A stretch of 64,000 nt of DNA from Patescibacteria group bacterium. Lineage in GTDB: Bacteria > Patescibacteriota > Patescibacteriia > JAHIZJ01. A program made the translations under genes and the position numbers. The DNA lies in contig JAQTMH010000005.1 of assembly GCA_028714495.1 (NCBI GenBank), positions 32,840-96,839 on the forward strand, in the 5' to 3' direction. Position 1 is the stretch's first letter, and each line of letters opens with the position of its first letter. This document shows positions 10,670 through 62,951 of the stretch, in pieces. Below the pieces are notes generated by a model. That model had not been told where the DNA came from. It ran no database searches and saw only the letters and a program-made list of their open reading frames with translations.

Positions 10670-10776
10670 CACAAGGTGTTGGTTCGTATAATATCCAGTT
10701 AAACGAAATTGAGAAATTATCGCTTTCGTCGTACCATTAAAGAAAGCTTAATAAATCAAGATCTGATCATGCTTAT

Positions 10777-11829
10777 ATGCCTATCAACGTAGCAATTATC
10801 GGAACAGGAAACTGCGCTAAAAGCCTTGTTGAGGGTGTGGCTTTCTATTCTAAAAACAAAGAGGACAAAACTGGTTTAATGAATCCGCATATTGGAAAGT
10901 ATCACCCTTCTGATATCTACTTTGTCGCTGGCTTTGATATTGATGAAAGAAAAGTAGGTAAAAAATTACACGAAGCACTCAATGCGGAACCAAACAAAAC
11001 TGTTAAAATTGCAGACGTTCCTGAATATGACGTCATAGTGCAACGTGGCCCAACCTGTGACAGCGTTATTCCTGAACTTCGAGAATATTTTATCCATGAA
11101 AGCGACGAACCCGTTGCTGACGTTGCACAGGTCCTCAAAGATTCTGGTGCTGAAATCGTCATCAACTATCTTCCGACCGGCAGCGACAAAGCTACTTATG
11201 CGTACGCGGAAGCGGCTCTAATTGCTGGCTGTAGTTTCATTAACTGTATGCCTACACCAATAGCTAAACATCCGGAGTGGCAAAAAAAATTTGACGACGC
11301 CGGGCTTGTTTTGATGGGAGATGATATTAAGAGCCAATGCGGTGCTACAATTGTTAATCGGGTTTTGCTCAATCTTTTAAAAATGCGCGGTATTCGTATT
11401 ACAAAGTCCGAACAAATAAATTATGGTGGTAACTGCGACCACTTTAATCTGCATTACAGGCCTGAAGCCAAAGAAGCATCAAAAGAATCTGCTCTAAACA
11501 GCGTACTTAATCCCGACGACGCAAAACCCTCTGCTCGCATGGTTTATACTAAAAATAACTACGACCACAAACAAGCCAAAATTAAAATGGAAGGCGAAAT
11601 GTTTGGGCACATTCCTGTTTCCATTGATCTCACACTTGAAGACGAAGATAGTCCGAACAGTGGCGGCGTCGTCAATGACGCAATTAGAGCCGCTAAATTA
11701 TTAGTAGAGAATAGAAGGCCATACCTAGCCAAAGAATTGTGCGCCTTTTTATTCAAAGCCCCACCAGCGCAGTTTCCTGACACAGAAGCATTGCAAAAGT
11801 TTAGAGAGATTATCAAATCTTTAGAGTAA
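10777..11829 (+). CDS. myo-inositol-1-phosphate synthase family protein (archaeal-type MIPS-like, NAD-binding)
   Basis: N-terminal Rossmann motif (IIGTGNCA). EDSPNSGGVVNDAIRAAKL resembles the archaeal MIPS C-terminal motif. 350 aa. Confidence 0.5.
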   Translation: MPINVAIIGTGNCAKSLVEGVAFYSKNKEDKTGLMNPHIGKYHPSDIYFVAGFDIDERKVGKKLHEALNAEPNKTVKIADVPEYDVIVQRGPTCDSVIPELREYFIHESDEPVADVAQVLKDSGAEIVINYLPTGSDKATYAYAEAALIAGCSFINCMPTPIAKHPEWQKKFDDAGLVLMGDDIKSQCGATIVNRVLLNLLKMRGIRITKSEQINYGGNCDHFNLHYRPEAKEASKESALNSVLNPDDAKPSARMVYTKNNYDHKQAKIKMEGEMFGHIPVSIDLTLEDEDSPNSGGVVNDAIRAAKLLVENRRPYLAKELCAFLFKAPPAQFPDTEALQKFREIIKSLE

Positions 11830-11845
11830 CGACCGCGCCAATTTC

Positions 11846-11917
11846 TCAACATCGTTTAACAGCGTCTATCCGCCATCCGCCCTGGGCGGACAGGCGCATG
11901 AGACGCAAACGTTGTGC
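11846..11917 (+). repeat. structured repeat copy A (attC-like: ACAAC/GTTGT and GCGTCT/AGACGC box pairs flanking the CCGCCCtgGGCGG hairpin)
   Basis: The same about-65-nt element recurs at 12452, 13061 and 13455. This copy ends about 25 nt before the ATG of the next ORF. Confidence 0.6.
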
Positions 11918-11943
11918 GAAATTCCATTTTTACTAATAAAACT

Positions 11944-12441
11944 ATGCTCATAGGATTAGCTGGGTTGCCGGCGTCCGGTAAGACCTCGATTGCAAAACAA
12001 CTTGAGAAATATGGGTTTCAAAACCTTTCAAGGGATCATTTTATCTCCTCGTTATTTAATCCCGTCCACTATAGCTCGCGCAAGCAAAAAGATATCGCAT
12101 ACAAAGCCATGATGCTTGTCGCCGAATATCACTTGAGAAGCAACCGTAAGGTTGTCCTCGATTGTCCATCGTTTAGTCAAAGGTGGGCCATCAAACTTGC
12201 GCAGGAAACCGCACGAAAGACGAGATCGAAATTTAAACTCATCTTTCTTACCTGCCCCGATCATACAGCGGTACACAGAATCCGCTCATCAAAAAATCAC
12301 ACCGCAACTGACCGGACACCGGCACTCTACTTCAACGTAAAAAAACGTTTCCAACCTCTCACTGTGCGACATGCTGTTATACGGACAGATCGGGCGATCA
12401 AGGACACGATGATCGATATTATCCAGTATTTGAAAAAGTAA
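11944..12441 (+). CDS. small P-loop NTPase / nucleotide-kinase-like protein
   Basis: Walker A GLPASGKTS at the N-terminus. 166 aa. Start assumed at the ATG (MLIGLAG), because the ORF-track start is a GTG that lies inside repeat A. Confidence 0.5.
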   Translation: MLIGLAGLPASGKTSIAKQLEKYGFQNLSRDHFISSLFNPVHYSSRKQKDIAYKAMMLVAEYHLRSNRKVVLDCPSFSQRWAIKLAQETARKTRSKFKLIFLTCPDHTAVHRIRSSKNHTATDRTPALYFNVKKRFQPLTVRHAVIRTDRAIKDTMIDIIQYLKK

Positions 12442-12451
12442 AAATGAAACT

Positions 12452-12519
12452 TCGCACAACAGCATCTATACGCCATCCCGTCGGATGACGGGGCAGCGTA
12501 TGAGACGCAAACGTTGTAC
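12452..12519 (+). repeat. structured repeat copy B (ACAAC..GCATCT..[CCCGTCggatGACGGG]..AGACGC..GTTGT)
   Basis: Outer and inner inverted boxes and a central GC hairpin, as in copy A. Followed about 20 nt later by the ATG of the HD hydrolase. Confidence 0.6.
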
Positions 12520-12537
12520 GAAATTGTCACACACACT

Positions 12538-13050
12538 ATGATTACAGCAGATGAATTTAAAAAATTAATAGATTTTGCCTTTGAGGCCTATCAGATAAAC
12601 AATACATCTGGCCAAGAATATAGGCAAAATGGAAAAGTGCCTTATATCATACATCCGCTTTGGTGTGCTTCAATGCTAATTACCGACACTAGAATTCCCT
12701 ATGAGGAACGAGAAAAAGGCTTTAAAGCACTTGTATTGCATGATGTACTTGAAGACACGAGCATGCAATTTCCAGACTGGGTTGAGCCAGATGTTAAAGA
12801 GATTGTAAAGGAATTAACTTTTGAAACTTCTGACCATGCTTTGGCTTCTATTCAGTCCAAGTCAATTAATATAAAACTCCTCATGCTAGTTGACGGCTTG
12901 TCTAGTATGTATGAGGAGCATGTCTGGCCTCAAAGGCGAAATAAATGGAAGGCCATGATGGAGATTGTAGTTAAAGAAGTTGAGGAACACTATGGAAACA
13001 TTCGAGTTGTTCAGTTGGCGAAATCCATAATTGAAAATACTAATTGGTAG
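12538..13050 (+). CDS. stand-alone RelA/SpoT-type HD domain, small alarmone ((p)ppGpp) hydrolase-like
   Basis: GKVPYIIHPLWCASMLI and ALVLHDVLEDT match the SpoT/Mesh1 HD signature. About 170 aa. Confidence 0.6.
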   Translation: MITADEFKKLIDFAFEAYQINNTSGQEYRQNGKVPYIIHPLWCASMLITDTRIPYEEREKGFKALVLHDVLEDTSMQFPDWVEPDVKEIVKELTFETSDHALASIQSKSINIKLLMLVDGLSSMYEEHVWPQRRNKWKAMMEIVVKEVEEHYGNIRVVQLAKSIIENTNW

Positions 13051-13060
13051 TGTGTTTGTG

Positions 13061-13156
13061 ACAACATCGTACAACAGCGTCTATCCGCCATTCCCTGCCT
13101 AGGCAGGCAGGCGCTAGCGCTCCACGCCGCATACGCCGAAACGTTAGATGAGACGA
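13061..13156 (+). repeat. structured repeat copy C (rearranged 3' boxes; central CCCTGCCtagGCAGG hairpin)
   Basis: Shares CAACATCGT..ACAACAGCGTCTATCCGCCAT with copy A. It lies upstream of the Cys-rich peptide ORF. Confidence 0.5.
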
Positions 13157-13207
13157 TGACCAAATAAAAAATATCATTAAAAAAACAAAAGAAGGAGGTG
13201 ATAAACA

Positions 13208-13357
13208 ATGTGTGAATGGTGTAATACTACAGTGTACTGTGGCTGTCCTAAACCCGAAGACAGCATTACAAAATGTGGGTGCGAAAAAGGTGTAAACTGC
13301 GCTGTCTGTGGCCACAGTCCAAGAAAGGAAGAGAAAGAAAAACCTGAAGAAAAGTAA
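13208..13357 (+). CDS. cysteine-rich 49-aa peptide (8 Cys + 1 His; metallothionein-like or zinc-ribbon-like), not in the ORF track
   Basis: Translation: MCEWCNTTVYCGCPKPEDSITKCGCEKGVNCAVCGHSPRKEEKEKPEEK. Strong SD AAGGAGGTG 7 nt upstream. Below the 60-aa ORF-track cutoff. Confidence 0.5.
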   Translation: MCEWCNTTVYCGCPKPEDSITKCGCEKGVNCAVCGHSPRKEEKEKPEEK

Positions 13358-13454
13358 ACCCGCGAGATTGAAGTTATGGCATAACCTACTGGTGTGGTTG
13401 TAATTCTTTTGCTTAACCAAATCAGTCCATCATTACCAGATAGGCCGCGCAATT

Positions 13455-13518
13455 CTACCGCCTCCATTCCGTCGCAACTCCCGCCAGAGGCGGGCAGGTC
13501 GGCTAGCCCGAAACGTGT
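13455..13518 (+). repeat. structured repeat copy D (degenerate; CCCGCCagaGGCGGG hairpin, ..GAAACGT tail)
   Basis: CTACCGCCTCCATTCC..hairpin..CAGGTCGGC..GAAACGT parallels copies A and C. Confidence 0.4.
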
Positions 13519-13575
13519 TATCGGAAATATCAACTACTACATTATTAACTTTATAAATTTAATTTTTTATTAACT

Positions 13576-13743
13576 ATGATAAACAAATACGGTAATTTAA
13601 TAGCTGCAATAAGTTTTTTTATCGCGGCTATTTGTATGTTTATTTCAGATGCGCACAGTAAAGCTATCTTTACAGCGATGTTTGGTGTGCTTGGGATAGT
13701 AAATATGGTTATCTTTGCAACTAACAAAAAGAAATAATACAAA
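13576..13743 (+). CDS. small two-TM membrane peptide (55 aa)
   Basis: MINKYGNLIAAISFFIAAICMFISDAHSKAIFTAMFGVLGIVNMVIFATNKKK. Two hydrophobic helices and a lysine tail. No clear RBS. Preferred over the overlapping minus-strand ORFs. Confidence 0.25.
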
Positions 13744-13883
13744 AAAACCGTAGTTTGGTGGTCGATCAATGGATGTCGAACATTGTAAAATTAATACTAA
13801 ACCGGCTATCAATGCCGATAAAATGGGCAAAAACTTCAGATACAAATAAACGTTAGCTGAAATAATAAAAATTAATATAAAAT

Positions 13884-14249
13884 ATGGAAAAAAATATTAG
13901 CAAGGGTTTGTTCTGGACGCCAAGAATTCTAGCAATGATATTCATCCTCTTTTTAGCCTTGATGTCGCTGGATGTTTTTGGGCCGGGGCAAGGTTTTTGG
14001 CAAACAACTGAAGCTCTTTTTACGCATAATTTGCCCGCTCTCGTTTTGCTTGCGGTCTTACTAATATCTTGGAAATATGAAATTGTCGGCGGGGTCGGTT
14101 TTATTCTGGCTGGATTAGTTTACATCGCCTTGCTAATGAGAAGCCCGTTTGAATGGTATAAGCTGTCCTGGGCCATGCAAATTGCCGGAGTTGCTTTTCT
14201 GACAGGAGCATTATTTCTCGCGGGTTGGTTTAAAAAAAGACACAAATAA
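13884..14249 (+). CDS. hypothetical four-TM membrane protein
   Basis: 121 aa, four hydrophobic segments, no recognisable motif. Confidence 0.45.
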   Translation: MEKNISKGLFWTPRILAMIFILFLALMSLDVFGPGQGFWQTTEALFTHNLPALVLLAVLLISWKYEIVGGVGFILAGLVYIALLMRSPFEWYKLSWAMQIAGVAFLTGALFLAGWFKKRHK

Positions 14250-14353: not shown

Positions 14354-14683
14354 TTAGGCAGACGGTACGGGTTCGATGATCTCAAACACTCCATGGCGAT
14401 GAGTCGTCACATACAGAGCCTTGAACCTGCGGGATCGGTGGTTTTTCTCGAAGTAGCTGCCCTCGATTTCCCACGAATCCCCGTTGCGATTGGCGCGACG
14501 ACAGCCAATGACCATAGCCTCGATCCGGCCGTCGAAGACGGGTTCCGGAATGTTCACGGCTTCTGCGCTAGCATCGACCGTGAACCAAACAGTATGTTGG
14601 TGCTTCCGGTCGTCTGCGAATAGCGCGGTCATGAGGTCGAACTTCGACGGTCCGCCACTGATCGAAATCACTGGGTTAGCCAT
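14354..14683 (-). CDS. hypothetical protein, GC-rich (about 57% GC) relative to surroundings
   Basis: 109-aa ORF with a strong SD (AAAGGAGGGG) before the ATG. Its composition stands out from the 40% GC background. Confidence 0.45.
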   Translation of the reverse strand: MANPVISISGGPSKFDLMTALFADDRKHQHTVWFTVDASAEAVNIPEPVFDGRIEAMVIGCRRANRNGDSWEIEGSYFEKNHRSRRFKALYVTTHRHGVFEIIEPVPSA

Positions 14684-14955
14684 ACAGTAACCCCCTCCTT
14701 TTAAAGGAGCTGCTCCTGAACAGGGCAGGAGCTCCCTCTGATCCAGTCATGCGACCAGACGACCTACCCATACGGATAGGAATTATCGAACCAAAGGACT
14801 ATAGTTCAGTTTGAAGAAAATGTCAAGGTGTGTACAATAATCAGAAATTTCGCCTCTTTCGCTTCACCCAAATTGCTTCTTCATTCCGGCGGTACTTCGA
14901 TCCGATCGATATTGTTCCGCCTATAGAATACTAGTTATTAAGATAATTTACCGAT

Positions 14956-49842: not shown

Positions 49843-50319
49843 CTACTTCGGCGGATCCTGCCAAGTGGTGGCTTTGCCATCCGCCGGCAGCCTCACCTTG
49901 TACCCACCGTAGCACCAGGGCCATCCAGTCTTTCCGTTGGCGCCCCGGCAGTGCAGATACAGAGTCAGGTTCTTGTCGCAGGAACCGATGGCGTAGGTGA
50001 CCTCGCTTGCCGAATCCGGAACGTTGACAAGCTCGGGATCACCCATCAAACAATTGTCCCCTGACAACGAGACGGTGTAGGGTCCGGTGCCCGGGCCATC
50101 GTCCCACTGAACCTGCGTCGGGAATTGGACATGGGCCGTGAACAGGTACATCCCGCCGCCGATGTAGCTGACCTTGAAGTTGGGGTTGTCGATCACGACC
50201 ACGGTATCCGTGGGCGCGGACGCAGGCGTGACCGCCGACGGCGTGATCTGTGCCATCGCCGGAGCAATGCAGAAAGCCATCACTGCCAGCGTCAGCAACA
50301 GAACCAGGGTCTTTCTCAT
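49843..50319 (-). CDS. secreted hypothetical protein (GC-rich island)
   Basis: Start placed at MRKTLVLLLTLAVMAFCIAPAMA (signal peptide), with SD AAAGGGAGGAAGG upstream. GC about 58%. Confidence 0.5.
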   Translation of the reverse strand: MRKTLVLLLTLAVMAFCIAPAMAQITPSAVTPASAPTDTVVVIDNPNFKVSYIGGGMYLFTAHVQFPTQVQWDDGPGTGPYTVSLSGDNCLMGDPELVNVPDSASEVTYAIGSCDKNLTLYLHCRGANGKTGWPWCYGGYKVRLPADGKATTWQDPPK

Positions 50320-50380
50320 CTTTCCTTCCTCCCTTTCGTTTTTGGTGGTTGGCGATCTGATACAGTTCCGAAACGTGGTT

Positions 50381-51250
50381 CTAGTTCCCGCCGATGATGA
50401 TGCCGTAGCGCCGCTCATCGCCGGGACGGAGGTTGACTACCTGTCCGTCCGACGTGACGCGATATTCGAACACGAACCATCCGCCGCCGAGGTCCCGGAG
50501 GTTCTTCAGCTCCGTGGCAGCGGAGAAGTTCCCGACCGGACCGACGAATACGCCGGAGCGCAACTCGTCACCATTCGTCTTCTGCAAGCGGATCAGCGCC
50601 AATGAGTTCTTGCGAACCCTCATGGTTGTCGTCCAAGTGCTGTCAGCGAATTGCATCGGGTGGGTCGTGTACTGGAAAGTTGTCCACGTTCCCCACCAGT
50701 ACACCGGTCTGTCGGGGTTGGCAGGCCAGTCCAGGTTCGGGTCGTTGAAAGCCGTACCCGTGTACCAGACCTGGGCGCCCATGATGGAGTCCACGACGCC
50801 GGGATTGACCATGACTTGGCCATTCTCGACGTACAGTTGGAACTCACGCAAGATGGACCATTCGGTACCACGAGACGACAGCAACTGCTGGTCGTTGACG
50901 GCAACATCCAGCAGCCGGTTCATCCGATCCTCCCCGTCCATGTACCAGAAGCCGACGGTGAATCTCTCGGTTCCCCAGACCGACCTCGAGTAGGTACCCG
51001 TGACGTGTCCCTCTGAGAATGTCCCGAACAAGTGGAGCGTGTCAGGATTGGCGCTCGAGACGACATCGCCTGTGATGTACACCGGCCATCCGTCTTGTGC
51101 TCCCATCGGAGCCGTCGCGTTGAGCGTCAAGCTGACAGTCTCCTGGTCGGAAAGCCCGGGAGCGGCGAAATCCCAGCTGTCGCGCGAGCACCCGGCGCAA
51201 ATCGCCAGGACACCGATCACCAGCCATAGCCATCCGTGCATACGACTCAT
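50381..51250 (-). CDS. hypothetical lipoprotein (GC-rich island)
   Basis: Signal plus lipobox LAICAGCS. SD GAGGAGGAG. 289 aa. Confidence 0.5.
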   Translation of the reverse strand: MSRMHGWLWLVIGVLAICAGCSRDSWDFAAPGLSDQETVSLTLNATAPMGAQDGWPVYITGDVVSSANPDTLHLFGTFSEGHVTGTYSRSVWGTERFTVGFWYMDGEDRMNRLLDVAVNDQQLLSSRGTEWSILREFQLYVENGQVMVNPGVVDSIMGAQVWYTGTAFNDPNLDWPANPDRPVYWWGTWTTFQYTTHPMQFADSTWTTTMRVRKNSLALIRLQKTNGDELRSGVFVGPVGNFSAATELKNLRDLGGGWFVFEYRVTSDGQVVNLRPGDERRYGIIIGGN

Positions 51251-51263
51251 CTTCGCTCCTCCT

Positions 51264-53114
51264 CTACCAGCCGTGGTCCAGGCCGATGCCGAACCAATGG
51301 CGGTCTGTGTGTGTGACCTCTCCGTTTGTCAGATTCCGATCGGTTGTGTCATTCATGAACTTGTACAAACCCTTGATTCGCCAGTACCGGTTAAAGCGGT
51401 ACTCGAAGCCCGCGCCAGGCCCGTTCCAGTCGAAACTCCATACCTGGCTGTCATACGACCAGGAGTCGTAAGACGCGTAGAGTACGAGCTTGTCCACTGG
51501 CTTGATGCCGATCCTTCCTTCGAAAACCCGCATCGTATCAGCGGAGAACGACAGGGTCTGGCCGTCGAAGTGACGAGCCTGCTCCTTTCGAAGCGCTCGA
51601 TCATAGGACGCCCGGAAATAGAACTTTCCAGGCTCAACAGTGTAGTTGCCGCCCAAGGAGTAGTCGAGGTTGGTACCACGCTTGTAGGTCATCTCGTAAT
51701 ACCCCAGCTGTGGAGTAATGCCGAGAATCCGACCATACCAGCCGTACCCATCGAAATACTTCGCCTTCTCCTGGGCGTGAATGAGGGTTGGCGTAACGTT
51801 GGTGTACTGTACGTACTCGCGCTGGCTTGATAGATACCAAGCTCCAGGTTCAAACCCTGTCCGCCAGAGACCTTGGAGGTCTCCGAGGATCCAGGCCCGT
51901 CCTCCGAGCCGATATTCACCGCTGACATGGTTCTTGTCCATGACAGCTTGTTCGACCCGGATGACAGTTGACATGTCGCAGAAGGGTCCCCAGCCATCAT
52001 AGCCGGAGATCCTCGGCAGCCACTCAAGGCCGCCGAAAACCGAGTGTTGATACGCATCATCCCTCACGTCCGCGTAGGCCAAACGGTAGTCCAGCCACCA
52101 CACTCCGCCCTGCACGAAATTGTGCGAAGTTTCAGGTGGAGCAGTGATCGGCGTAGCAACTGTCTGCGTAGGCGGAGCTGCGGTGCTGACTGGCGGAGGT
52201 TGCTGAATAGTGACGTCAGTCGAACCTTCATAGGAAAGAGGCACACGAACGAAGGCTCCGTTTTGGCAGTCGACGAACTGATACAGATAGTACCGGTAAT
52301 CGCCGAGGTCAACGGGATCATACTGCAGTGCTACCAGCCGATCAATCGGTTTGTGGTTCTTCGCGTCCTTCCAGTAGCAGACGGTTCTTCCCCAGGACTT
52401 CACGTCCTTTGAGAAACGCCCGCCGAAGATGAGCGCGTCGAGAACCAGCGGTTTGGATTCAGTGGAATACATCCAAACTGAATCCGGTTGGTTACCCCCG
52501 ATAATCGACTCCCACTGCGCGCGGACTTGTTCCGGTACGTTCATGAGCCGAAGTTGATCCTTCAGCTCGATTCCAGCCGGGTCACCGTTGGCGAAGTTCC
52601 ACGTGCGGAGCACATCAGATGGCTGCGCCATGAAAATCTTCGCGTCTGCTTTGGGTTTCCTACCAGTCGCCTGGTTGAAGCGCTTGATGTCCTCTTCGGA
52701 CACCCCAGCCTCTTTGGCGATCTCTTGCCAGCTTTCTCCCTTTTTGACGACTCTGGTAGGCGGCAGCTGAATCGGTTCCGGCTGCTTTTCCGTGCGTCTG
52801 ATATCGAGTTTGGTGTCCTGCACCGGGATCCATTCAGACCCCTTACAATACGCCAGTACCCGATATTCCACCCAGAAAGCGTCTCCACCCACCTGTTCAA
52901 CCGCGAAGTTGCCGTCTTTCGGCACCTGGATCCGTGTGATCCGTGAGTCAACAAGCTGTCCCACCTCAACCATGTTGCCGCCACCGGGCATGGTTACGTT
53001 GGCAAGATTGACAACCTTGCCATAAGGGGGCTGCTCGCACTGCGCGAAGACTGCGGAGCCGGTCGTCAATACGACCAGCGCGACCAAAACCGCCAGAACC
53101 GTATACCAACGCAT
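51264..53114 (-). CDS. secreted LysM-domain protein with C-terminal outer-membrane-type beta-barrel (GC-rich island)
   Basis: Signal peptide, a LysM-like segment (ESWQEIAKEAGVSEEDIKRF), and a C-terminal ~270 aa of amphipathic beta strands ending ..FGIGLDHGW. SD AAAGGAGGAT. Confidence 0.5.
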   Translation of the reverse strand: MRWYTVLAVLVALVVLTTGSAVFAQCEQPPYGKVVNLANVTMPGGGNMVEVGQLVDSRITRIQVPKDGNFAVEQVGGDAFWVEYRVLAYCKGSEWIPVQDTKLDIRRTEKQPEPIQLPPTRVVKKGESWQEIAKEAGVSEEDIKRFNQATGRKPKADAKIFMAQPSDVLRTWNFANGDPAGIELKDQLRLMNVPEQVRAQWESIIGGNQPDSVWMYSTESKPLVLDALIFGGRFSKDVKSWGRTVCYWKDAKNHKPIDRLVALQYDPVDLGDYRYYLYQFVDCQNGAFVRVPLSYEGSTDVTIQQPPPVSTAAPPTQTVATPITAPPETSHNFVQGGVWWLDYRLAYADVRDDAYQHSVFGGLEWLPRISGYDGWGPFCDMSTVIRVEQAVMDKNHVSGEYRLGGRAWILGDLQGLWRTGFEPGAWYLSSQREYVQYTNVTPTLIHAQEKAKYFDGYGWYGRILGITPQLGYYEMTYKRGTNLDYSLGGNYTVEPGKFYFRASYDRALRKEQARHFDGQTLSFSADTMRVFEGRIGIKPVDKLVLYASYDSWSYDSQVWSFDWNGPGAGFEYRFNRYWRIKGLYKFMNDTTDRNLTNGEVTHTDRHWFGIGLDHGW

Positions 53115-62294: not shown

Positions 62295-62951
62295 ATGGTT
62301 GAACGCCTTACTAAAAAACAAAAAGAAATTCTTGACTTTGTAATCGAGTTTATAAAGGTAAGCGGCTATTCACCGAGTTATCGGGAAATTGCCGACCATC
62401 TCGGTCTGTCCTCCCCTGCCACCATCCATGAACATATCCGAGGACTTGAAGACAAGGGCTATCTCAAGGCCCAAGAGGGCCGGGCTCGCTCGCTTGAACC
62501 AACCCGGGCAACGCGTTTCAAAAAAGCGCTTGAATTACCCCTCGCTGGTTTGATTACAGCCGGAGAGCCGATTGAGGCTGTTCAAGAAAATGAGACAATT
62601 ACCGTTCCGGCGGAAATTGTTCGCGATGAAAATTCTTATGTCCTGAAGGTTAAGGGTGAATCAATGATCGAGGATGGAATACTGGACGGCGATTATGTAA
62701 TTGTTGAACGCAATTTCTATCCGCGAAATGGCGATGTAGTCGTAGCTCTACTGGACAATACCTATGCCACGCTTAAACGTTATTACCGTGAAAGGTCGCG
62801 CATCCGCCTTCAGCCAGCCAATTCAAAGATGAAGCCGATTTATTCCAAGAATCCGGCGATTCAGGGAATTGTCCGTGCCATTTTCCGCAAGTTTGAAACT
62901 GATTGGCAGAACTATAAAACCTACACTAGAGGTTTTCAGACGGTAAAGTAG
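62295..62951 (+). CDS. lexA: LexA repressor (S24 peptidase)
   Basis: N-terminal winged HTH (SYREIADHLGLSSPATIHEHI) and the C-terminal Ser/Lys dyad region (VKGESMIEDGI..ATLKRY). Confidence 0.85.
   Translation: MVERLTKKQKEILDFVIEFIKVSGYSPSYREIADHLGLSSPATIHEHIRGLEDKGYLKAQEGRARSLEPTRATRFKKALELPLAGLITAGEPIEAVQENETITVPAEIVRDENSYVLKVKGESMIEDGILDGDYVIVERNFYPRNGDVVVALLDNTYATLKRYYRERSRIRLQPANSKMKPIYSKNPAIQGIVRAIFRKFETDWQNYKTYTRGFQTVK

Follow-up and report, generated by a model that had tools for sequence, protein, structure and literature searches.

The pdif modules of Acinetobacter plasmids are bounded by 28-bp duplex XerC/XerD sites that alternate in orientation and have no hairpin core. On the current view, the ability of integron integrases to act on folded single-stranded sites arose when a Xer-like ancestor gained the I2 helix, and we know of no natural system without the I2 domain that was previously available for comparison. 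The integron integrase is a tyrosine recombinase with an IntI-specific additional domain around patch III (PMC9668308), and in the published scenario I2 was acquired by a Xer-like ancestor that was exploited by single-stranded elements (PMC7790495). Xer-related simple tyrosine recombinases of the candidate phyla have been grouped as the 'Cand' subgroup and are presumed to be Xer substitutes (Smyshlyaev et al. 2021, PMC8138268). Here we analysed a 64,000-nt stretch of DNA from a Patescibacteria group bacterium (GenBank assembly GCA_028714495.1, contig JAQTMH010000005.1), referred to as the window, in which a first-pass annotation from the letters alone had noticed four structured repeats resembling integron attC sites. 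We consider it highly probable that positions 10683-13863 of the window are an integron-like array of five one-gene mobile cassettes directly downstream of serS, and that its sites belong to a family of the candidate phyla radiation (CPR) tied to a Xer-like recombinase. All positions are window coordinates, c1 to c5 are the successive sites of the array, and L-numbers denote comparison loci.

The repeats did not match any Rfam family, either at the gathering thresholds on the whole window or at E <= 10 on 11.7-13.7 kb. A two-part pattern derived from c1 and c2 matched twice in the window with 0.00 matches expected by chance; its 5' half matched three times and its 3' half twice against 0.00-0.01 expected, all within 11.8-13.1 kb. 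A scan of one genome per species returned 14 loci; this first set of sites was ascertained by a strict pattern. Ten of these loci are labelled Kerfeldbacteria, Gracilibacteria, Patescibacteria or 'bacterium' and four 'uncultured Gammaproteobacteria'. A covariance model built from the pattern-derived sites (R1) and a second-round model (R2), the E-values of which are rough, together yielded 124 non-overlapping sites in 95 loci, mostly of CPR/Patescibacteria. Thirty-two arrays have at least two sites, with up to eight sites per locus and nearly always in a single orientation. The metagenome-assembled genomes (MAGs) labelled 'uncultured Gammaproteobacteria' (L003, L006, L009, L012) carry near-identical sites in multi-site arrays; either they are mislabelled CPR bins or the system extends past the CPR.

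The consensus of the site consists of (T/A)ACATC-N4-AAC, a single A, a 6-nt L'' followed by AT-NNN, a variable loop of 10-139 nt, NNN-AT followed by L', (A/G)(A/G)AC and finally GTT-RNNN-GAAAT. The R box is made from two arms, ACATCG-NNY-AAC and GTT-RNN-CGAAAT, with an unpaired spacer of A on one side and NNAC on the other. The triplet AAC is present in 122 and GTT in 109 of the 124 sites. The canonical heptamers fit far fewer, RYYYAAC 30 (24%) and GTTRRRY 26 (21%). In the L box the sequence is free while pairing is kept, as in GCGTCT/AGACGC, CGGCAT/ATGCCG, AAGAGT/ACTCTT and CGGTCT/AGACCG. Paired helix cells amounted to 95%, and the covariation score was 0.453, whereas shuffles gave 0.122 and slid controls no more than 0.09, in an alignment that was fitted to the model and hence is somewhat biased towards structure. 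Because the L-box helix and the terminal hairpin covary with free sequence, we concluded that an intrastrand fold is under selection rather than a binding site in duplex DNA. In 107 of 119 sites the fold was more stable on the strand antisense to the ORF (open reading frame; p = 1e-17), and in the core helix A.C exceeded G.T by 19 to 5 on the sense strand. Both favour folding of bottom-strand DNA over a sense-strand RNA. A single bulged base between the helix halves is found in some sites, in c1 and c2 as a single G, and is absent from many others. In L021, L034, L062, L066, L068 and L082 a second class of 5' arm, CTCACCCTCG..AAC or CGTCGGGGCG..AAC, takes the place of ACATC; it pairs with the partner arm over about 9 nt only and may define a sub-type of the site.

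The 3' arm after GTT finds its complement on the far side of the gene, in the 5' arm of the following site, and not in that of its own site. In the window, 30-nt arms matched across the gene at 24/30 and 22/30 positions, while all other pairings, own arms included, gave 11-13/30. Over the 14 pattern-derived loci 19 of 27 consecutive pairs scored 12-15/16 with an own-site mean of 8.1/16 (p = 2e-5). The loci collected around recombinase genes (see below), a set independent of the strict-pattern sites, gave 28 of 48 pairs with at least 12/16, compared with 3.2% of random pairs and 3 of 78 own-site pairs (p = 5e-15). The arm pairs keep a 2-nt mismatch, with GAAAT opposite ACATC. Each cassette has its own complementary arm pair, the R' remainder at its 5' end and the complementary R'' at its 3' end, as integron cassettes do. 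Such complementarity results from site-specific recombination inside each site and is the classical signature of integron cassettes.

A candidate for the enzyme was found in a Patescibacteria MAG (L011), where a 272-aa tyrosine recombinase is encoded on the minus strand and a lone GTT-arm site followed by three full sites lies to its right on the plus strand. The protein scored 239 bits with NF040815 ('XerA / integron integrase'), above the cutoff of 220, and 223 bits with TIGR02249, in two stretches and under the cutoff of 265. The best solved structure was VchIntIA (2a3v), which aligned with residues 5-174 and 241-317 only; therefore about 40 residues of the IntI-specific domain are absent. 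Archaeal XerA structures scored nearly as well as VchIntIA. There are more than 7,500 relatives at E < 1e-20, and the matches listed have 185-360 aa, most of them 270-290 aa, with source names that are mostly those of Patescibacteria lineages. The family probably corresponds to the 'Cand' subgroup of Xer-like, two-domain enzymes from candidate phyla.

We scanned 80 metagenomic loci around recombinase relatives of 38-61% identity with R2. Of 79 sites, 65 were located upstream of the recombinase gene on the strand opposite to it and two upstream on its own strand; of those downstream, 12 lay on the strand of the gene and none on the other. The hits of the narrower R1 gave a binomial p of 1e-14 for the upstream/opposite-strand class. 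Among the loci whose upstream flank reaches at least 3 kb, 16 of 32 have such an array, and two more recombinases found by exact sequence have the same divergent array layout. The 395-aa recombinase of L007 was considered as an array integrase and dismissed, being XerC/D-like, convergent and located at the distal array end.

At 93-143 nt from the start codon of the recombinase there is a conserved site without a hairpin, TTCGYATAWNAAC-NA/GTT-RNN-CGAAAT, where the slash precedes the GTT arm. In 13 of 21 loci this arm matched the complement of the first full site's 5' arm at 14-16 of 18 positions, a score that none of 200 shuffles per locus reached (p < 0.005 each); L011 shows the complementarity too. 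By position and logic, the site is the putative attI of the system. In the related loci the attI thus stands beside the recombinase gene with a divergent array, as it does beside intI in an integron; the window has the attI-like site only. A second direct copy of the left-arm motif, TTCGYATAAYATACAA, is located about 45 nt upstream of attI in L057, L048, L053, L061, L062, L066 and L032, and this doubling resembles the accessory integrase-binding repeats of attI1. Control by LexA is frequent among canonical integron integrases. The window encodes a LexA homologue (62295-62951), and two genes on, just outside the window, there is a Y-family polymerase (IMS; L106 1908-3128).

The attI-like site of the window matches the consensus of the recombinase loci and is a simple site of the double-strand type. 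From here the array runs through an Ino1-like gene, c1, a P-loop kinase gene, c2, an HD/alarmone-hydrolase-like gene, c3, a gene for a Cys-rich peptide, c4, a gene for a 53-aa peptide and c5 (Table 1). The arm of the attI-like site and the 5' arm of c1 are complementary at 16 of 18 positions, which is the top match across the whole window, and the Ino1-like gene therefore is the first cassette. It is bounded by complementary arms at 10698 and 11843-11860 and is missing from the same locus in L097. The arms flanking the kinase gene (11911-11934 and 12437-12460) are 92% complementary over 24 nt, those of the HD-type gene (12513-12536 and 13052-13075) 88% over 24 nt. An exact look-up of the kinase protein under two alternative start codons found no record.

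Table 1. Features of the cassette array and its right flank in the window, in array order
Feature	Position	Strand	Remarks
attI-like site, no hairpin	10683-10709	+	TTCGTATAATATCCA/GTTAAACGAAAT, GTT at 10698; 14 nt 3' of the serS stop codon
Cassette 1 ORF, myo-inositol-1-phosphate synthase family, 350 aa	10777-11829	+	Pfam PF01658
Site c1, intact	11848-11922	+	AAC 11858-11860; GTT 11911-11913; R1 78.9 bits, R2 72.7 bits
Cassette 2 ORF, P-loop kinase	11944-12441	+	Pfam AAA_33
Site c2, intact	12448-12524	+	AAC 12458-12460; GTT 12513-12515; R1 79.9 bits, R2 70.4 bits
Cassette 3 ORF, HD-type, 170 aa	12538-13050	+	without Pfam match
Site c3, composite	13063-13154	+	R1 30.5 bits, R2 40.8 bits; fold z -0.56, not significant
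Cassette 4 ORF, Cys-rich peptide, 49 aa	13208-13357	+	strong Shine-Dalgarno; also in L097
Site c4, decayed	13455-13528	+	keeps GC hairpin, AAAC 13511-13514, 3' arm GTTATCGGAAAT 13517-13528
Cassette 5 ORF, hydrophobic peptide, 53 aa	13576-13737	+	
Site c5, decayed	~13812-13863	+	remnant 5' arm, no hairpin, AAAC-GTTAGCTGAAAT 13848-13863; fold z -1.55
DUF7670 membrane protein	13884-14249	+	Pfam PF24709; conserved in L097 at ordinary genomic divergence

The first-pass annotation had placed the beginning of the array at 11846 and counted four copies of the repeat. The attI-like site moves the start about 1.1 kb upstream, and both this site and c5 had been missed. The element family is real, yet of the four copies only c1 and c2 are intact, with c3 composite and c4 decayed. 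In c1 and c2, which are nearly identical to each other, we found the described boxes ACAAC/GTTGT and GCRTCT/AGACGC around a GC-rich central hairpin with asymmetric spacers of 1 and 4 nt. The R' box was rightly called non-canonical, since it reads GTTGTGC in c1 and GTTGTAC in c2, and only that of c3 (GTTAGAT) fits GTTRRRY. Folding of the bottom strand had been proposed as a check. As single-stranded DNA, c1 had z values of -4.7 on the plus and -5.1 on the minus strand, c2 of -3.4 and -7.0; the folds of c3 and c4 were not significant. The 5' half of c3 equals c1 exactly, while its 3' half is rearranged, the L' segment ATGAGACG being shifted to after AAAC-GTTAG. Both models missed c4, which folded no better than shuffles (z 0.01); its 3' arm is nevertheless a typical one. 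A remnant 5' arm complementary to it, CCGATAA, is found at about 13815-13821. Sites c1 and c2 give the appearance of being functional, but damage to c3, c4 and c5 has probably left the distal cassettes fixed.

We searched downstream for a 5' arm complementary to the 3' arm of c5 and found none. The last site of the L107 array ends with the same arm. Probably c5 closes the array and retains the right arm that attI had originally, and the DUF7670 gene beyond it is therefore probably native flank and not a cassette. A GC-rich ORF of 109 aa on the minus strand (14354-14683), without a Pfam match and conserved in L097, may be an inverted cassette or native flank. The genes between the sites are functionally unrelated, as had been stated for the kinase, the Cys-rich ORF and an ORF read as a hydrolase of S-adenosylhomocysteine. 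The latter ORF, that of cassette 3, gave weak PDB matches to Rel/SpoT-type domains (Rel hydrolase domains, 7oiw, E 7e-5) and to Mesh1 (3nqw, E 1.6e-3), and its product is probably a small alarmone hydrolase by this similarity. ARAGORN detected no tRNA in the 64 kb, nor was any Rfam family found there at the gathering threshold; without a tRNA in the window, the array is not a tRNA-linked island. A GC-rich island at 49843-53114 (GC 0.56-0.59 against about 0.44) has minus-strand ORFs of 191, 289 and 616 aa, whose sole Pfam match was a marginal LysM (20.6 bits, cutoff 20.9). It may be foreign DNA.

The first-pass annotation had suggested comparing related genomes for reshuffling of the intervening ORFs, and such a case is provided by L097, where SerRS is 98% identical and the nucleotide flanks are 94-95% identical to the window. 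At this serS-alr locus L097 has different cassettes. Homology stops at 10682, directly before the attI-like site, and 10683-13063 is replaced by unrelated DNA with its own attI arm, three sites of its own and ORFs of 245 and 159 aa. The region from c3 to the 109-aa gene is common to both strains. Identity restarts exactly at the AAC of c3, from which c3 is 100% identical, and continues at 100% for 578 nt (13073-13650) before it falls to the genomic level. This block of identity suggests a recent exchange with one end at c3. It ends inside the 53-aa ORF, and the surrounding DNA differs by about 3-6%. Between the 109-aa minus-strand gene and alr, L097 has an extra 1.6 kb (12278-13870; ORFs of 177 and 80 aa) with respect to window 14851-14929; no recognisable site was found at either boundary of this second polymorphic spot. 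The more distant loci L098-L104 (SerRS 65-69% identical) keep the serS-alr synteny and have no detectable sites, and thus are uninformative on turnover. An extra 84-aa gene in L104 compared with L102 turned out to be a difference in gene calling, because the DNA is identical.

Cassettes recur in unrelated arrays as well. The 159-aa cassette of L097 is also present in L011 with 79% nucleotide identity, and its arms have changed in a compensatory manner (GTTAAACG/CGTTTAAC versus GTTAAGTG/CACTTAAC). Over 73 cassette bodies, the median length was 836 nt with a median coding fraction of 0.84, and the longest ORF was co-oriented with the site in 68. The products are heterogeneous and accessory: methyltransferases, GNAT, NUDIX, radical SAM, DNA methylases, AbiEii, Fic, hydrolases and glutaminase. 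The attI-adjacent cassette of L107 (6358-9880, minus strand, about 3.5 kb) encodes a complete restriction-modification pair, made up of an N6/N4 methylase and an MvaI/BcnI-type endonuclease, as well as an AAA ATPase; therefore some cassettes comprise more than one gene, and defence systems can be among their content. One Kerfeldbacteria contig (CAVSWO010000002.1, 822,872 bp) contains both L004 and L008, two separate arrays each with a paralogous P-loop ATPase cassette (MIYLIGGPPKCGKTT..). No recombinase was found within either of these 8-kb loci.

Taken together, we observed a structured family of CPR sites, the arm logic, the linkage to a recombinase gene and attI, and the replacement and recurrence of cassettes. 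For the window we favour a scheme in which a recombinase encoded elsewhere in the genome would excise cassettes as circles. In the circle the two arms would pair and thereby complete the long R stem. The cassette would then re-insert at attI by site-specific recombination at or beside the AAC/GTT triplets, with the folded single-strand hairpin mimicking the duplex attI. The inner 3' strand of the folded site, CTTCGCAT-L'-AAAC-GTT.., resembles the attI top strand (C)TTCGCAT-..AAC-NA-GTT... Integron attC sites and the attP of the CTX phage, a mimic of dif, offer parallels to this likeness. Most of the evidence favours a crossover on the GTT side, to which the attI junctions and the array ends point, as in integrons; the spacer geometry of the sense strand, which is that of the canonical bottom strand, points to the AAC side. 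Hairpin cores are not co-inherited with either neighbouring ORF. As a speculation, either strand could possibly be used when selection of the strand by I2 and the extrahelical base is missing.

Several results weigh against this interpretation. Only c1 and c2 of the window array are intact, three of the five full sites being damaged. A motif regex and tblastn with the recombinase P0001 found no tyrosine recombinase in the 64-kb window, just as the first-pass annotation had stated for an integrase; nor was there one in about 7 kb beyond the right end, and of the contigs of 3 and 9 kb returned by look-ups of both ends neither encodes one. With no recombinase linked to it, the activity of this particular array is putative. 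The 16 other loci with at least 3 kb of upstream flank have no detectable array; the recombinase family may have another, Xer-like role. As to the side of the crossover, the AAC of c3 is the exact breakpoint between the window and L097, and in two cassette pairs compared across genomes the arms are kept but neither adjoining core is. Thus the evidence from strains, cassette pairs, array ends, spacers and strand stability is in conflict as to GTT or AAC. Finally, all related loci are MAG or metagenome contigs.

The most serious alternative is a mechanistic one, namely that the cassettes are Xer/dif modules recombined as duplex. Each site would then consist of a pair of dif-like half-sites in inverted orientation, the hairpin would be a by-product, the enzyme a housekeeping dimer resolvase, and the cassettes insertions at dif resembling pdif modules or integrative mobile elements exploiting Xer (IMEXs). 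The recombinase is indeed of the Xer type without an IntI-specific domain, its match to XerA is almost as good as that to IntI, and the enzymes of candidate phyla have been filed as Xer substitutes (PMC8138268). Inverted arms flank each gene as in pdif modules, and attI resembles an inverted-arm site of the dif type, TTCG..AAC-NN-GTT..CGAA. The GC skew of the window is positive from 1 to about 17 kb and negative from about 18 to 64 kb with a cumulative maximum at about 17-18 kb; this switch, about 7 kb from the attI-like site, could be the replication terminus. Yet no consistent terminus pattern emerged from the GC skew of 27 recombinase loci, so that the skew speaks neither for nor against attI being dif, and some genomes have several arrays, as on the contig shared by L004 and L008. 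Furthermore, duplex recombination does not account for the strong covariation of the L-box helix and terminal hairpin with free sequence, for the retained asymmetric spacers and conserved 2-nt R-stem mismatch, or for the systematic difference in fold stability between strands (107/119 sites). Thus we regard recombination as duplex modules as unlikely. A lower probability still is assigned to a canonical integron remnant, in which a standard IntI that has the additional domain and is encoded at another place in the genome would act on ordinary attC sites. The conservation of AAC and GTT, the R-L-hairpin-L-R layout of attC, the co-oriented single-ORF cassettes with arm complementarity following integron logic, and VchIntIA as the top solved-structure match all agree with it. 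It is difficult to reconcile with a recombinase beside such arrays that is about 40 residues of the IntI-specific domain short and reaches 223 instead of 265 bits with TIGR02249, with heptamers that fit 24% and 21% of the sites only, with spacers of 1 and 4 nt, and with a bulged base that is not universal. The CPR model had no match in a Vibrio superintegron segment, and with a model from 12 Vibrio attC neither the window nor the CPR arrays gave a match at E <= 10, the latter being weak evidence since that model is narrow. Hence the first-pass reading as attC-like recombination sites between one-gene cassettes in a CPR genome was retained, but not as canonical integron attC. Similarly, the proposed integrase-less cassette cluster (CALIN) agrees with the lack of a recombinase in the window, but the cluster can hardly be called a bare CALIN: its sites are not canonical attC, and immediately after serS it opens with a conserved insertion site of the attI-like kind, which the definition of a CALIN does not demand.

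Two further explanations dispense with cassette mobility, and we give hardly any credence to either. The repeats could be a reiterated cis-regulatory RNA, i.e. a leader, riboswitch or attenuator in 5' untranslated regions, an alternative that had already been raised in the first-pass annotation. A conserved and covarying stem-loop that in intact copies ends 20-45 nt before a start codon is what such a leader would look like. We rejected it because the arms pair across genes and not within the site, the position and orientation are fixed with respect to a tyrosine recombinase and attI, and gene content is swapped at site boundaries between strains. Moreover, no Rfam family matched at E <= 10, the downstream genes are functionally unrelated, there is neither a terminator nor a platform sequestering the Shine-Dalgarno sequence, and both the more stable antisense fold (107/119) and the 19 to 5 ratio of A.C to G.T on the sense strand speak against an RNA. 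Passive intergenic palindromes without a role in mobility, i.e. mRNA-stabilising or terminator hairpins or elements like the repetitive extragenic palindromes and bacterial interspersed mosaic elements (REP/BIME), would likewise be intergenic, palindromic and present in many copies per genome, and the decayed c3 to c5 persist without an intact structure. Such palindromes would not explain why sequence and structure are conserved over distant CPR lineages in strict orientation to the recombinase and attI, or why cassettes have specific arm pairs with compensatory changes; no T-run follows the hairpins.

Beyond the window, we see an even chance that the CPR/Patescibacteria possess a widespread integron-like gene-capture platform, which operates by a Xer-type recombinase without I2 on its own attI and folded attC-like sites, and which is either the long-postulated intermediate between Xer/dif (ss-IMEX) and integron (PMC7790495) or an independent invention of cassette capture. 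If so, the I2 helix would not be required for recombination of cassettes at hairpin sites. A Xer-like enzyme without I2 beside an attI and hairpin-bounded cassettes thus makes the evolutionary scenario for I2 directly testable. The platform would also be a major route of gene gain and loss in small, streamlined CPR genomes. Since current integron finders depend on the IntI-specific domain and the canonical attC model, they probably overlook it. A defined context would be given to CPR proteins that are now annotated as 'XerD' or 'integron integrase', and cassette genes such as those for methylases, toxins, acetyltransferases and, in this window, inositol-phosphate synthase would be seen to be mobile. 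Integron-like arrays in CPR were not described in any paper found by full-text searches, but most subscription journals were outside their coverage and earlier publication is possible.

Compared with the described systems, the CPR enzymes resemble those of the 'Cand' subgroup, for which no associated sites or cassettes were described (PMC8138268), whereas here about half of the genes with enough flank adjoin an array and attI. Like the pdif modules, the cassettes are small, carry one to few accessory genes between inverted Xer-type arms, shuffle between replicons and are connected with a Xer-like enzyme. Unlike the CPR arrays, pdif modules have no dedicated adjoining recombinase, no attI and no directional array. 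With CTX-phi and other IMEXs the CPR system would share a Xer-type recombinase that has no IntI-specific domain and acts on a hairpin which, once folded, mimics a dif-like duplex, and in both insertions at one simple site build tandem arrays. Yet IMEXs are phages or genomic islands instead of one-gene cassettes, and they use the XerC/XerD pair of the host at the terminus dif, while the CPR system has a single enzyme encoded beside attI, and GC skew gives no consistent placement at the terminus.

The likeness to integrons goes furthest. Compact, mostly co-oriented single-ORF cassettes form arrays that also occur away from the recombinase gene and vary between close relatives. Their content is accessory (GNAT, toxins, methylases), and the arm after GTT belongs to the cassette whose far end bears the complementary arm. 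The sites are imperfect hairpins with AAC/GTT, R box, unpaired spacer, L box and a variable terminal structure, and a simple attI lies beside a divergent tyrosine recombinase gene. The differences concern the enzyme and the fine structure of the site. The CPR recombinases have 270-290 aa without the IntI-specific domain; the R box has long arms of 12-24 nt that conserve a mismatch of 2 nt; the asymmetric spacers of 1 and 4 nt have on the ORF sense strand the geometry of the canonical bottom strand; the L-box helix is perfectly paired and covaries, with an extrahelical base in some sites only; and the hairpin cores are not stably linked to either adjoining ORF. Covariance models of the CPR and Vibrio site types do not detect each other, with the reservation that the Vibrio model is narrow. 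Thus the CPR system is an integron in function and layout, but by the IntI domain and the heptamers of its sites it stands outside the integrons as they are defined.

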